A stretch of DNA of 64,000 nucleotides from Niabella sp. (lineage in GTDB: Bacteria > Bacteroidota > Bacteroidia > Chitinophagales > Chitinophagaceae): the NCBI GenBank assembly GCA_047975735.1, contig JBKEEB010000016.1:32123-96122 (forward strand), given 5' to 3'. Each line of letters opens with the position of its first letter. Positions within the stretch are counted from its first letter, which is position 1. The notes beneath the pieces were generated by a model. It made no database searches. It was not told the origin of the DNA and saw nothing but the letters and a program-made list of their open reading frames with translations. Below are positions 4,036-57,221 of the stretch, one piece after another. The position numbers and the translations under genes were made by a program.

Positions 4036-5109
4036 TCACTTCAACACTTCTTCCAACTTAGCATCCAAATCATCACCACGCAGGTCTTTACCGATAATTT
4101 TTCCGGTAGGATCTAATAATAAATTTCTGGGGATAGCCTGAATTCTGTATTTAACAGCTACTTCGTTTTGCCAGCCTTTTAAATCGCTTACCTGCGTCCA
4201 AGCTCATTCATCTTTTTTAATAGCGGCTTCCCAATCATTTTTATCCTCATCTAAGGAAACACCCAAAACCGTGAAATTTTTGTCCTTAAATTTTTCGTAT
4301 GTCTTTAATAAAAAATGATTTTCTCTACGGCAGGGGCCGCACCAGCTTGCCCAAAAATCAACCAGCACATATTTACCCCTGAAGGAAGAAAGCGACACCT
4401 CATTGCCTTGTACATCTTTTTGTGTAAAATCGAGAGCAGGACTGCCAATACTTAAAAACCGTAAATCAATCAAAGCCTTTTTTAAATGTCCGCCCAATGC
4501 ACTGTTCATGGCTGCAGGCTGTAAAGCAGCAGCTCTTTTTTCTACCACAGTTCTATCCTCCGTAAGGTTAATGGTTGACAAAATGGCCATTGCGCTCACC
4601 GGAGAAGCGGGATGTTTTGCAATAAAACTATCCACCCAATTATTTATAGTCGCAACATTATTATCCAGTGCTGTTTTTAAGCTATCATTACCCAAACCCA
4701 TTTGGAAATATTGTGTCAATTCATTTAACTGTTGAAAACGAGGTAGCAGATTTTTTTGAAATTCATCAAACTCGGTTTGTAAAGCCGAGCCCGTAATTTT
4801 CCAGTCTTCAATATTTTCTGTTACTGCACCAGAAATATTTACTTTATTATTTCCAAGAAATAAGACTCTTTTTAAACTATCGGCCACAATTAACCCTGCA
4901 AAAACAGGTTCTTCTAATTTTACGGAGAGCGTAAATTTTTCTCCCTTAGATTTTGTTGCTTTCAATACGGCTTCGCCGGCTTCCTGAAAGTTTTTCAATA
5001 CCACGGAAGTTCCGTTTTGCATTCCCGTAACAGTGCCTTTGATGGTGAGCTTTTGCGCATCCGAAGCGAATGGCAGGAAAAGGGCTATTATTATTATAAA
5101 TCTTATCAT
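4036..5109 (-). pseudogene. TlpA/AhpC-TSA family thiol-disulfide oxidoreductase with an in-frame TGA
   Basis: Signal peptide, N-terminal beta-rich domain and 'DFWASWCGPCRRE' redox motif. The ORF stops at the TGA at 4204-4206. The same frame continues with 55 codons, 'AWTQVSDLKGWQNEVAVKYRIQAIPRNLLLDPTGKIIGKDLRG...', which is the expected C-terminal part of the thioredoxin fold, and ends at 4036-4038. Confidence 0.8.
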
Positions 5110-13363: not shown

Positions 13364-16300
13364 CTATAATGATACATTTAGTCCTATGCTGATTGTTTTT
13401 TGTTGTGGATAGTAGTGTCCTCCCCTGCCTGACGGAGATTCGGGATCCAACTGATATTTTTTCAATTTGTCAAAAGTGAAGAAGTTCACTCCGGCAACAA
13501 ATACCCTTACATTTTCTAAACCAATCGGTTTAATAACACTGTATGGAACCGTGTACCCTACAGCAAATGTTTTCAAACGCAGGTAACCCGCTTTTTTATA
13601 ATTGTAGTCAGAAGTAGGACCTAAACCCCTACCGCCAAGGCGAGGAATCAATGCATATCTATTTGTGCTACCTTCTGTCCAACGTTCATTATATCTAACT
13701 TGGGGAGCAACTCCGCCAAAATAGTAGATAGCTGTATAGTACCCAAAAGCACCCTGAAACAAAGTAGAAAGGTCAAAGTTTTTATACCGGAGATTTGCAT
13801 TTAGTCCAAACATCCAATGAGGCATTGTTCCTTTACCCAGTGCTACAACATCCTGCCTGTCTATTTTATCATCTCCATTAATGTTAACATATTTAATATC
13901 TCCGGGTCTTAAAGAAGAGTTAGGTGTTGCATTTCCATCCTGATTATACCCCAGATTGTCTATTTCTTCCTGACTCATAAAGAGGCCATCCGTTTTGTAC
14001 CCATATACAATATCTGTCCATCTTCCGGTTCTTTTATCAGTCCTTTCAACAGCTTCATCAGTAAACTCCGGTTCATCATAATACTTCCATTTTGCTCTTG
14101 ACCAAGACAATGTAGAGCTTAGATCCCACACCCAATTTTTAGAACTGCCGGAGGTTCCTAACTTGGTTTCAAAACCTCTGTTTGCTATACTGTTCAAGTT
14201 CTCTATAGGCAAATCAGCTCCAAATGTTGATGGCAAACTCGATCTTCTGTAAGCAGGAATACCGGTTCTTTCTCTGTAGAAAACATCTACTGTTCCGTAT
14301 AATTTATTCCTCCATAAAGAGAAATCTACACCGGCATTCATTGTAGTTGTTTTTTCCCAGGTTAAATTTGGATTGGGCATTCCCAAAGCTACCAATCCGG
14401 GATATCCTGAATTTCCAAAAGAGTATGCCATACCTTGTGAAGGATCGGTAGCTATTTTGTACCCGGTCATATAATCGAAATTGCCTACATCATCAATTCC
14501 AGCCGTACCATAACTCAACCTAAGTTTTAAATCCTGTAAATTGTCTGAAAATGTCTGCATGAATTTTTCCTTGTTCATCCTCCATGCTACAGTTACACCG
14601 GGGAAATAGCCCCATCTTGTTTCTTTAGGATATTTGGCAGAGGCATCCGCTCTAAAATTAATATCCATCAAATAACGGGTATCGTAATTATAGCTCAATC
14701 TTCCCACATAACTTTTCCTTCCCATTTCGCTGGTACTTCCATCATTCCTCATACCAGTAGTACTTCCTCCGCGAATTTCCTCAATTAAAGGCGTTAAAAA
14801 TTCATTTCTGTAACCATATAACGAATTATAATAATAATCAGCTATCTCATGAACGGCTATAAAAGAAATATCGTGTAAGCCAATCTTTTTGTCGTACCCT
14901 ACAGAAAACTGCCCAGTTAGCACCCTATTTTTTGACTCACTTTGGCTTAAAGAGGCGGCACTGCCCAATGCTCCTTCTAATTTATACAAATCAGCTTCGT
15001 AATTGTAGGTATAAAATTGTACCGGCCTTACAAATTCTTTTAAAGAGCTATAATCCTGATTAATATTAAAGAAGGCTTTTGCATGAAGCCCTTTCAATAA
15101 TGTTGAATTATAGGACAAGGCAACTGTACTCATAATATTTTGGCTTGTCCTGTCTCTATAGCCGGCAATATCCCTATTACCCATTATATGTGCGCCCCCT
15201 GTATTTGAACCAACGGCCCATGATAATTTTGTTGGATCGGGTAGCTCTGTAGGAAAAACGGGTTGTGTATTCCAATAGTCTTCCCATACGGTATAGTCGC
15301 CATCATCCAATCCACGCCAAGGGGCTTTGGTAATCCCAAAATTGGTATTCAGGTTCATGGTAAACGAGAACTGTTCAGAAATACGGGCATCAATATTTGA
15401 GATCAGGTTATATCTTTTATAACCGCTACCACCGCGTTTAAACATCGTTTCCTGATCCAGCATACCCAAAAACCCGTAATACTTTATATTTTCTGAGCCC
15501 CCGCGAACAGAAACATTATGCTGTTGTTGGGGAGCCCATTTGTCGAAAATATAATCAAACCAGTTAGTGTTGGGATATTGAGGATCTGTGCCATCATAAA
15601 ATTTTTGTATTTCTTCTTCCGTATATGGGGGCTGTACTTTCGGGATTACCTCCTTGTATATGGCCTTCACGTGCCATTTCGGCAAACTGGCCGCCCGTAA
15701 CAGGTTTTGGCATAATGGTTATGGATTGCCAGGTACGGGATGTATTAAAGTTAATTACCGGCCTTGTACTATTACCTCTTTTTGTGGTAACCAGTATAAC
15801 ACCATTACCGGCTCGGGCTCCGTATATTGAAGCAGAAGCATCTTTCAATACCGAAACTGACTCGATGGTATTGGGATCTAAGGTTGAAAAATCGGCTATA
15901 ACCCCATCTACCACTACCAAACGAGCTCCAAAGCCTCTTATATTTAATGCGGCCTGATCGGCACTGGGCTGGCCACTTGCCTGAACAGAAATTAAACCAG
16001 ATAAACGCCCTGCCAATGTATTGGTAACATTGCCCACAGGAGCTACCGTTAAATCGGTGCCTTTAACGGTTGAAATAGAACCTGTTATTTCCTCCCGCTT
16101 TTTTGTGCCATAGCCCACTACTACCACTTCTTGTAAATCATTTTCCAATGATTCTAATACAACGGATATATCATTAGGGTTATTAATTACTCTTTCTACT
16201 GTAATTTTACCAACTCTGGAAAAAACCAATGTTTCTCCAAGAGCCGCATCAATTGAAAATTGCCCTTTTTCATTGGTAACCGTGCCTGTTGCTTTCCCTT

Positions 16301-16754
16301 TTACTGATACTGTTACGCCCGGCATTGGAACCCCTTCTGCATCAAGCACCACACCTTTTACGGGCACATAAATTAAATCGTCCGGCCTGTCTTTGGCCTT
16401 TACAATTACCAGTTTATTACGAGCTACTTTATACTCAAACCCTGTGTTGTCTAAAACCTTTTGAAGTACTTCCCTAACAGGCATGTCCCTGATGGCAAGT
16501 TCTACTCTTATTGAATTAAGTTCTTCGTTTTCATGATATAGGAATCTGTAGCCGGCCTGCTTTTCTATTGTATTAAATATATCCTTAAGTGTAGCATTTT
16601 TGGCAGTTAAGGTAATAGTGGATTGCGAATATCCTATGGCAGCGGCCTGCATACTGATTGCAAACATTAAAATTGTTACGAATTTCATAACAAGCAGGGT
16701 TTTAATCCATGATTTTTGTACATGAAAATTTGCTTTAATAGCATTTTTTTGCAT
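13364..16754 (-). pseudogene. SusC-type TonB-dependent transducer (STN, CarboxypepD_reg, plug and barrel domains), split by a frameshift
   Basis: Two overlapping ORFs, 15594-16754 and 13364-15685. The N-terminal part carries an STN-like signalling domain, 'VKGVVLDAEGVPMPGVTV' and the plug. The C-terminal part is the barrel and ends '...ISIGLNVSL'. Removing one nucleotide near 15638-15644 gives a continuous '...EGHIQGGNPKVQPPYTEEEIQKF...'. Confidence 0.85.
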
Positions 16755-20030: not shown

Positions 20031-20804
20031 TTAGGCTTCTTTACCACCTTTTAATTCTTCCTGTAAACCGGTAAGCTCATCCCATTTGCCATCAGCAGCT
20101 AAAGCCGCTTGTTGTGGCCAAGTATCGGGTACTAAAGCATTAAAGTTGCCATCAGCCGCTTCTAAAACAGCCTTAATTTCTTCGGGAGTTTTAGCAGCTA
20201 AAGCAGCAAAAGTACCAAGACCTGCAGCAGTTAATGCTTCTGCAGCTTTAGGACCAATGCCTTCAATTTTGGCTATATCATCAGCCGCAGGTGCTTCTTT
20301 AACATCGGACTTTACTTCATCTGTTGTAGCAGTTGCTGCTTCTACAGGAGTTTCTGTCGTTTCAGCTTTTTTCTTACCACTACCACCGCGACGTCTGGTA
20401 CGTTTTCCGGCAGCTTTTTCTTCGCCAAGTCCTTTACCATAAATCTCGTTGTAGTCAACCAGTTCAATCATGGCTTTTTCTGCAGCATCGCCGGGGCGAA
20501 TACCTAATTTTATAATGCGGGTATAACCACCGGGACGACCAGCAACTTTTGCAGAAATATTGTTGAACAATTCAGTTACGGCAGATTTATCTTGCAGGTA
20601 ACCAAAAACAATTCTACGCTGGTGTGTTGTATTGTCCTTACTTTTTGTAATCAACGGTTCTACATATACCCGTAAAGCTTTTGCTTTAGCCAGCGTTGTT
20701 ACAATACGCTTATGCTCAATTAACTGGCAGGATAAATTGGATAATAAAGCATCTCTGTGTGCTTTTTTGCGGCTTAAATTTTTGATTTTGTCTCCGTGAC
20801 GCAT
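20031..20804 (-). CDS. rplQ: 50S ribosomal protein L17 with a ~130-aa C-terminal extension (basic linker plus helix-hairpin-helix-like domain)
   Basis: The N-terminal ~120 aa are canonical L17 ('[23 protein letters not shown]...[12 protein letters not shown]'). They are followed by a Lys/Arg/Ala-rich linker and '[35 protein letters not shown]...[17 protein letters not shown]'. Confidence 0.9.
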
Positions 20805-20963: not shown

Positions 20964-21965
20964 TTAATAGTCGTCTTTATCGATGCCCAGTTTTTGCAAA
21001 TCCATACCAAAACCAAGGCCTCTTTCGTTTAATACCTGCTCAATTTCGGAAAGTGATTTTTGACCGAAGTTTCTGAACTTCATCAAATCTTCCTGCTCGT
21101 ATTGAACCAGCTCGCTTAAAGAGTTGATTTTAGCTGCTTTTAAGCAGTTAAAAGCTCTTACCGAAAGGTCTAAATCTTCTAAAGGCGTTTTAAGCATTTT
21201 GCGAAGTTGTAGCGTTTGTTCATCTACAATATCCTCTTTTTTCTCTTCCTTATTATAAAATGTGATGTTCTCATCAGTAATGATCATCAGGTGTTGAATT
21301 AAAATACGGCTGGCTTGTTTTACAGCCTCTTCGGGATGAATGGTTCCGTCGGTTGCAACTTCCATAATCAGTTTCTCATAGTCTGTACGTTGTTCTACAC
21401 GCGTATTTTCAACACTATATTTTACATTTTTAATAGGGGTGTAAATAGAGTCGATAGCGATATAACCAACGGGTGCATCTTTTACTTCGTTATCTTCGGC
21501 AGGAACATATCCGCGTCCTTTACCAATTGTTAGTTCTATATCTAATTTAGTAGAGGCATCTAACGTACAAATTACCAATTCAGGATTCATAATTTGGAAA
21601 GATTGTGTTCCTTCTTCAATCATACCGGCAGTAAACTCAGTTTGATTTTTTATAGATAACGAAATTTTTTAATTAGCTACATCATGATCTACTGTCTTTT
21701 TGAAACGTACTTGTTTCAAATTCAGGATAATTTCAACCACATCTTCGCTAATACCTTTAATGGTAGCAAATTCATGATCTACACCATCCATTTTAATACC
21801 TACAATAGCATACCCTTCTAAAGAGCTAAGCAATACACGGCGTAGCGCATTACCAATGGTTACGGCATAACCGGGCTCCAACGGGCGAAACTCAAACTGA
21901 GCTTCAAAGTCGGATGCTTTTTGCAAAATAATCTTATCGGGTTGCTGAAAATTTAATATTGCCAT
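20964..21965 (-). CDS. rpoA: DNA-directed RNA polymerase alpha subunit, interrupted by an in-frame TAA at 21669-21671
   Basis: The two ORFs (21669-21965 and 20964-21623) are in the same frame. Read-through gives '...[48 protein letters not shown]...', collinear with Bacteroidota RpoA. Total length is ~333 codons. Confidence 0.9.
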
Positions 21966-56430: not shown

Positions 56431-57221
56431 ATGTCCAAAATATTGATACACCTATTTATGAAACTACTTAGCACATTTATATTAATAACAGCTATAACTA
56501 CCTGTAAAGTTTCAATTGCACAAAACAACAATATTGGCAAAGCCTTCTATAAAATTACTTTCAGATCGGAGGCCGGCACCGAAATTTTACAAGGAGACTT
56601 ATCATTCAATATTGAAAAATCTGTTTTTGTCTATGATAAAAACACCTATATCCCTCCCCATACAGATACTATTTCCAGAACAGGAGAAAGGTCTATAACA
56701 GTAATGAGCAAGGGAAAAGTAGGAGATGGCATAGGTAAAATAATTTACACAGATTTTAAAACCTCGCAACAGATTTCCAGAGATAAAATTGCTAATAAAG
56801 CATTTATTATACAGGACTCCATTGTACATCCGGATTGGGAAATAGGAGATCAAAGAAAAAAATTGGCGACCTAAATTGTCAAAACGCATTTACTAATTAT
56901 TATGGAAGACGATATGAAGCATGGTTCACTACGGAGATACCTATTGGTGTTGGCCCGTGGAAATTAAACGGATTACCGGGGCTGATTGTTGAGGCATCCT
57001 CAACTGACAGTTTAGTGATTTTTAAAATGGAAAGTTTCAAAGCTTCCAATACCACCGATACGGAAATAGCTGCACCAACAGATGGAGAAAAAATATCAGG
57101 CGGATATATTAGTTTTAGAAAAAAACAGGTACAAAGTTTGATAAATGAGTCCGCAAAGCCAGGAGTAAAGATAACTGTTGGCGAGGTATCTGTTCGAAGA
57201 TTTGAAAAAACAGCTGAATAG
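56431..57221 (+). pseudogene. GLPGLI family paralog split by a -1 frameshift in an A7 tract
   Basis: The ORFs 56431-56874 and 56835-57221 are collinear with the upstream paralog. Adding one A to the A7 run (56856-56862) restores 'WEIGDQRKKIGDLNCQNAFTNYYGRRYEAWF...WKLNGLPGLIVEA', which aligns without gaps to 'WNIGTDVRNIGNYKCQNAFTTYYGREYEVWF'. Confidence 0.8.

Follow-up and report, generated by a model that had tools for sequence, protein, structure and literature searches.

The window, that is, the whole stretch of 64,000 nucleotides of Niabella sp. DNA that was analysed, carries the gene for the RNA polymerase alpha subunit, rpoA, in the normal neighbourhood rpsM-rpsK-rpsD-rpoA-rplQ. On the minus strand, rpoA forms one continuous frame that is interrupted at codon 99 by a TAA codon, which appears on the plus strand as tta at positions 21669-21671 (Table 1). 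The stop is preceded by GCT AAT (A N) and followed by AAA ATT TCG (K I S), giving the protein context V-A-N, stop, K-I-S-L-S-I-K, and it lies within an A-rich run, AAT TAA AAA ATT. Relative to the Escherichia coli alpha sequence, it would presumably fall in a loop of N-terminal domain 2. Read through the stop, the frame encodes 333 amino acids and matches the NCBIfam model NF003516 with 401 bits (cut-off, 353 bits) in a single alignment that covers residues 1-328 and runs across the stop. The gene is otherwise perfectly conserved, with no sign of other decay. The initial annotation had described two rpoA ORFs in the same frame parted only by this TAA and had regarded the 15 codons that separate the stop from the next ATG as normal RpoA sequence; translation and the ORF listing bear out the former description, and alignment with congeners the latter. 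None of these 15 codons (21624-21668) is an ATG, GTG, or TTG start codon.

Table 1. Features of the rpoA locus and in-frame stop codons in other conserved genes of the same genome (G000). Coordinates are those of the window unless a contig of G000 is given.
Feature	Position	Strand	Basis
Full rpoA frame, 333 codons plus terminal stop	20964..21965	-	Translation; NF003516 above cut-off; sole copy
In-frame TAA, rpoA codon 99, ancestral GAA (Glu)	21669..21671	-	Comparison with relatives
98-aa N-terminal ORF fragment left by the stop	21669..21965	-	ORF listing
15 sense codons from the stop to the next ATG, ordinary conserved RpoA sequence	21624..21668	-	Translation; alignment with congeners
219-aa C-terminal ORF fragment, first residue Met114 of the full protein	20964..21623	-	ORF listing
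rpoA codon 237, TAT (Tyr); private D237Y, GAT>TAT, G>T	21255..21257	-	Asp (GAT/GAC) in 99/99 relatives
rpoA codon 59, ATG (Met); private I59M	21789..21791	-	Ile (95) or Val (3) in relatives
dnaE, two stops at a distance of 12 nt: TAG (codon 729) and TGA (codon 733)	G000:C44:6457-6471		tblastn; spanning alignment
infB, TAG in GGITQHIGA-Y-R			Coding-potential scan; spanning domain alignment
gyrA, TGA			Coding-potential scan; spanning domain alignment
nadA, TAG			Coding-potential scan; spanning domain alignment
Sigma-54 activator, TAA at the ES-E-LFGHEKG motif			tblastn; spanning domain alignment
Piperidine-6-carboxylate dehydrogenase, TAA			tblastn; spanning domain alignment
Ser/Thr kinase, TAA			tblastn; spanning domain alignment
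TlpA-like thiol-disulfide oxidoreductase, TGA	4204..4206	-	AhpC-TSA/Redoxin domain across the stop
Aldose epimerase, TAA			Coding-potential scan; spanning domain alignment
SusD, TAG			Coding-potential scan; spanning domain alignment
Tsp45I restriction enzyme, TAG at codon 48	G000:C14 around 17283		PF06300, E = 2e-123, full-length
GMC oxidoreductase, TGA			tblastn against relatives; no spanning domain

Codon 99 of rpoA is GAA or GAG in all 19 congeners, and Glu occupies this position in each of the 99 aligned Chitinophagaceae relatives (GAA in 59 and GAG in 40). Glu or Lys had been proposed in the initial annotation as the usual residue, with a GAA or AAA codon converted to TAA; the 99 relatives decide for Glu. 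Because all of them carry GAA or GAG, the stop amounts to a single G>T change in the coding strand, corresponding to C>A at position 21671 of the plus strand. A stop at codon 99 is absent from every relative compared, while a programmed read-through site would be conserved. Among 40 relatives searched, 39 possess an rpoA gene that is free of internal stops. The exception is another Niabella genome (G006), in which rpoA (C8:1149091-1150089) contains an in-frame TAG (CAG>TAG) located 10 codons before the normal end; this stop removes just the last residues beyond the C-terminal domain and is unrelated to that at codon 99.

Two further private changes were identified in rpoA (Table 1). The D237Y substitution, at a position that is Asp in all relatives and also derived from a G>T change, is probably another base error, whereas I59M may be either an error or a natural change. 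Only 3 of the 99 genomes have more than one private change at RpoA positions that are invariant elsewhere, and such changes in the other genomes are mostly conservative. In the neighbouring rpsD and rplQ genes, no private changes were found at conserved positions, and the density of errors around rpoA is therefore not uniformly high. Taken with the two dnaE stops, which are separated by 12 nt, the private changes in rpoA suggest that errors are locally clustered.

The rplQ gene itself (20031-20804, minus strand) encodes a protein of 257 amino acids. Its L17 domain (residues 20-116) is normal; beyond it come an Ala/Lys/Glu-rich linker and, at the C terminus, a helix-hairpin-helix domain (Pfam HHH_5, residues 176-213, 28.5 bits). 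Such a C-terminal extension is unusual for ribosomal protein L17.

Searched over its full 3.87 Mb in six frames, the genome yielded one match to rpoA only, and exactly one match was likewise obtained in each of 40 relatives. The second rpoA copy considered in the initial annotation thus has no counterpart in a genome that is 100% complete. The suppressor tRNA considered there fared no better: ARAGORN identified 42 tRNAs, which cover the usual anticodons, and none of them has a suppressor anticodon (TTA, CTA, or TCA), while both release factors are intact. The genes for the RF1-like and RF2-like proteins with the PCRF domain are open, RF1 containing the GGQ motif and RF2 both SPF and GGQ. TAA also terminates 518 of 716 conserved genes (72%) at their expected ends. 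A tight cluster of four tRNA genes was observed in the same survey (G000:C121:7203-7629), specifying Arg-ACG, Phe-GAA, His-GTG, and an Asn-like tRNA with the anticodon ATT. Several stems in these tRNAs are mismatched and normal copies exist elsewhere in the genome; the cluster may represent an array of tRNAs from a phage or mobile element, or a set of decaying copies.

Sequences from the same organism were sought by exact look-up of the 98-aa, 219-aa, and readthrough proteins, which gave no match. The best protein homolog was 95% identical, and a sequence from a second assembly of the same species was not found. Two scans of metagenome contigs for the exact pattern, which allowed either G or T (K) at the variable position, likewise gave no match.

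The genome to which the window belongs is a Niabella draft of 3.87 Mb in 152 contigs (N50, 44 kb). With a CheckM-type completeness of 100% and a contamination of 0.15%, it is not an obviously poor draft. Through a coding-potential scan, which detects in-frame stops flanked by coding sequence, and an ortholog comparison by tblastn, at least 14 in-frame stops were identified in 13 conserved genes, including rpoA (Table 1). Six of the stops (in rpoA, dnaE, and the genes for the sigma-54 activator, the dehydrogenase, and the kinase) came from the ortholog comparison, and the scan added those in the other eight genes. The 14 sites are spread over 11 contigs at distances of 1.6 to 51 kb from the nearest contig end, and no common sequence motif, such as a methylation motif, is visible by eye around them. 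On the contigs of G000, they are located at C24:53,791 (rpoA; position 21671 of the window), C44:6457 and 6469 (dnaE), C52:17288 (infB), C43:24115 (gyrA), C62:33475 (nadA), C130:28477 (sigma-54 activator), C38:35510 (dehydrogenase), C89:24409 (kinase), C24:36326 (TlpA-like), C119:46479 (GMC oxidoreductase), C119:57792 (SusD), C110:14365 (aldose epimerase), and C14:17283 (Tsp45I). In 12 of the 13 genes, the Pfam or NCBIfam match runs across the stop in one alignment, the exception being the GMC oxidoreductase gene. In dnaE, the paired stops lie in the sequence TTG TAG GAA ACC TAC TGA; this pair is the clearest sign of locally clustered errors. The TAG in the gene for the Tsp45I-family type II restriction endonuclease may represent either an error or a genuinely inactivated gene.

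Intact versions of the affected genes were searched for in five congeners (G008, G012, G018, G002, and G013). The infB, gyrA, nadA, and dnaE genes, all of which are single-copy in the present genome, are uninterrupted in the five congeners, as are the genes for aldose epimerase, GMC oxidoreductase, and the TlpA-like protein, except that the aldose epimerase gene gave a partial match in G013. The ancestral residue at the stop of the TlpA-like gene is Leu, which all five congeners retain, and a change of TTA to TGA (T>G) accounts for the stop. The presence of at least 14 similar stops across the genome makes an explanation specific to rpoA unnecessary. The consensus error listed in the initial annotation is favoured here, by indirect evidence, over the other candidates listed with it, of which the second copy was refuted and the suppressor tRNA found no support.

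An unbiased rate was obtained by comparing ORFs from 1.98 Mb of a complete relative (G012) with the present genome by tblastn, which gave 714 ortholog pairs and 261,000 aligned codons. At well-aligned positions, six internal stops were found in 5 of the 714 orthologs (rpoA, dnaE, and the genes for the sigma-54 activator, the dehydrogenase, and the kinase), together with about one frameshift-like case. The reciprocal control, in which ORFs of the present genome were compared with the DNA of the complete relative, covered 730 orthologs and revealed no convincing internal stop; the matches listed reflected ORFs extended too far at the N terminus, C-terminal ends, or poorly aligned ends of HSPs. 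The proportions of broken orthologs (5/714 vs 0/730) differ with P = 0.029 by Fisher's test. Nonsense changes make up 4.75% of random coding substitutions in this genome, so that the six stops, found in 783 kb of aligned coding sequence, correspond, if a uniform spectrum is assumed, to about 1.6e-4 substitutions per base. Extrapolated to the whole genome under the same assumption of a uniform spectrum, this rate would amount to roughly 600 errors and about 25-26 false internal stops.

Two frame disruptions of another kind were observed in the window. A SusC/TonB-dependent receptor gene (13364-16754, minus strand) is split into ORFs of 386 and 773 amino acids, which are in different frames and overlap by 92 nt (15594-15685). 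This overlap fits a one-base indel. As the rest of the genome has few indels (about 1 in 714 orthologs), the disruption may reflect either a real pseudogene or a homopolymer error. A GLPGLI paralog on the plus strand (56431-57221) is similarly represented by ORFs of 147 and 128 amino acids in different frames, with an overlap at 56835-56874, and a one-base deletion in an A7 run is suspected.

The ancestral residue could be inferred at 12 stop sites, and a transversion is required at every one of them. The changes comprise five G>T (rpoA, sigma-54 activator, kinase, nadA, and G733 of dnaE), three T>G (gyrA, GMC oxidoreductase, and the TlpA-like gene, all TTA>TGA), one C>A (dehydrogenase), one Tyr codon changed to TAG by C>G or T>G (infB), and two A>T, which are located at variable sites and do not belong to the G<->T/A<->C class. 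That class accounts for 9 of the 12, compared with an expectation of 39.5% (P = 0.014). Ancestral codons for Gln, Arg, or Trp, which offer the sole transition routes to a stop, are represented at none of the 12 sites. With the codon usage of this genome and a uniform spectrum, transitions make up 14.9% of the nonsense paths, and their absence is weakly significant (P(0 of 12) = 0.14); with every transition weighted fourfold relative to a transversion, their share of the paths rises to 41% and P falls to 0.0017.

Two other probes for errors were dominated by natural variation. Among the classified private missense changes in rpoA, infB, gyrA, nadA, and dnaE, determined against five congeners, G<->T changes numbered 17 of 62, compared with 15 of 53 for G013; a G<->T excess is undetectable by this test because natural divergence hides errors at a rate near 1e-4. 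The tRNA genes of the present genome and of G012, compared as a further error probe, showed natural between-species differences.

Among Illumina HiSeq reads of PhiX, substitutions constitute 99.5% of errors (Minoche et al. 2011, PMC3334598). The commonest errors in all of the HiSeq data examined in that study were A<->C (29.2%) and G<->T (26.8%), an excess that was attributed to dyes sharing one excitation laser (PMC3334598). G>T/C>A changes have been recognized as the signature of oxidative 8-oxoG damage that arises while libraries are prepared (Costello et al. 2013, PMC3616734), and such artefacts are confined to a small fraction of reads (PMC3616734).

The in-frame stop in rpoA is private to this assembly, the defect of which it forms part is genome-wide, the underlying changes are transversions, and a decoding apparatus that could rescue the affected genes is absent. 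On this basis, the TAA at codon 99 is best regarded as a base error in the deposited consensus in which biology is not involved, a reading to which we assign a probability of about 0.88. In the organism itself, codon 99 of rpoA is most likely GAA (Glu) and the gene product a normal alpha subunit. We infer that the stops do not exist in the living cell and that their cause is technical. Substitution errors would be scattered through the consensus at roughly 1.6e-4 per base, and rpoA would by chance have received one that creates a nonsense codon. The predominance of substitutions over indels, with a bias towards G<->T and A<->C, could have arisen through cross-talk between the dyes of four-colour Illumina sequencing that entered a thinly covered consensus, an attribution to be read from the spectrum, and oxidative G>T damage may have contributed.

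Closest to the consensus error stands the view that the consensus caught real but unrepresentative molecules, either minority defective alleles from a mixed population or MAG, or templates damaged by 8-oxoG. The G>T and C>A changes, which make up 6 of the 12 that were inferred, bear the signature of oxidative damage, and both the dnaE stops that lie 12 nt apart and the two private G>T changes in rpoA are what might be expected if poor or damaged molecules decided the consensus locally. Oxidative artefacts are, however, present in few reads, so very thin coverage would be needed, and the three to four T>G changes are left unexplained by 8-oxoG in the template. A living population, for its part, could not have defective alleles as the majority form of each of five essential genes, and a heterogeneous population or MAG chimera, which the initial annotation had also listed, fails to explain stops in several essential genes. 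We consider this account improbable. Still less probable is a nonsense codon that is real and fixed in rpoA, the cell surviving either by read-through or suppression, or with an alpha subunit in two pieces produced by termination and downstream re-initiation. Such tolerance would agree with the otherwise perfect conservation of a sole rpoA copy, with the A-rich surroundings of the stop (AAT TAA AAA ATT), and with its presumed alignment to a loop of N-terminal domain 2. Suppressor tRNAs are nevertheless lacking (0 of 42), RF1 and RF2 are intact, TAA ends 518 of 716 genes, the 15 codons downstream offer no start codon, and the stop occurs in no relative; moreover, the same rescue would be needed at once for TAG and TGA codons in dnaE (twice), infB, and gyrA.

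Every one of the nonsense codons, 14 or more in number, might be real in a living bacterium if the lineage were a hypermutator that had lost mutT/mutY/mutM-type repair of oxidised guanine and survived the broken rpoA, dnaE, infB, and gyrA via an unusually high, global level of stop-codon read-through, polyploid complementation, or two-piece proteins. A deficiency of the mutT/mutY/mutM type would give exactly G:C>T:A and A:T>C:G transversions. DnaE, IF-2, GyrA, and RpoA are essential proteins, and a cell in which all four are truncated is not viable; we give this scenario a very slight chance. The residues replaced by the stops are also heterogeneous, namely Glu, Ser, and Lys for TAA, Tyr, Glu, and Lys for TAG, and Leu and Gly for TGA. 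All three stops are thus involved, each at several residues, and therefore no single suppressor, reassignment, or recoding signal rescues the set. The presence of in-frame stops in several genes would be accounted for by a changed genetic code that reads TAA, or every stop, as sense, yet TAA ends 72% of the conserved genes, each stop stands for several residues, the release factors are present, and a cognate tRNA is absent. This candidate, which is hardly credible, was refuted by the inconsistent mapping of stops to residues. An equally negligible likelihood attaches to rpoA being a dispensable pseudogene backed by an intact copy elsewhere. No support for it was found, and a further copy could in principle lie in unassembled sequence, given that the assembly consists of 152 contigs; against this stand the single rpoA in the genome, its normal gene context, and the absence of further decay.

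With a consensus error as the preferred reading, rpoA of this Niabella is most likely normal, and its stop has no biological significance but serves as a data-quality flag for the assembly. The genome is the representative of its species, and false pseudogene calls for rpoA, dnaE, infB, gyrA, nadA, and others would follow from its use. Work on pseudogenisation, genetic codes, or selection could likewise be led astray by its false stops. The triage applied here, which combines ortholog stop counts and a reciprocal control with the mapping of stops to residues and the substitution spectrum, is free of reads and can be reused.

Several known systems resemble parts of this pattern. Ochre suppression by mutant tRNAs, as in the supC/supG type of E. 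coli, would make an in-frame TAA in an essential gene such as rpoA tolerable; in the present genome, by contrast, a UUA anticodon is found in none of the 42 tRNAs, and the TAG and TGA stops would need further suppressors. Genes for RNA polymerase subunits are naturally split in cyanobacteria (rpoC1/rpoC2) and archaea (rpoA1/A2 and rpoB1/B2), where entire lineages share the split and the downstream part carries a start of its own. The two consecutive rpoA ORFs recall this arrangement. Unlike those splits, the break in rpoA is private, and the next start lies 15 codons downstream, so that its use would delete conserved residues. The 8-oxoG artefact (PMC3616734) is matched by the G>T changes at E99 and D237 of rpoA, in nadA, at G733 of dnaE, and in the kinase and sigma-54 activator genes, as well as by the C>A change in the dehydrogenase gene. 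This artefact is restricted to G>T/C>A and to few reads, whereas the present genome also contains three to four T>G and two A>T changes, all of them in the consensus. As in the false internal-stop pseudogenes that arise from Illumina base errors in the consensus of draft genomes and MAGs (PMC3334598), the defects described here are substitutions enriched in G<->T/A<->C and private to one assembly; the stops are scattered over contigs, strike essential genes regardless of function, and are in some cases clustered.
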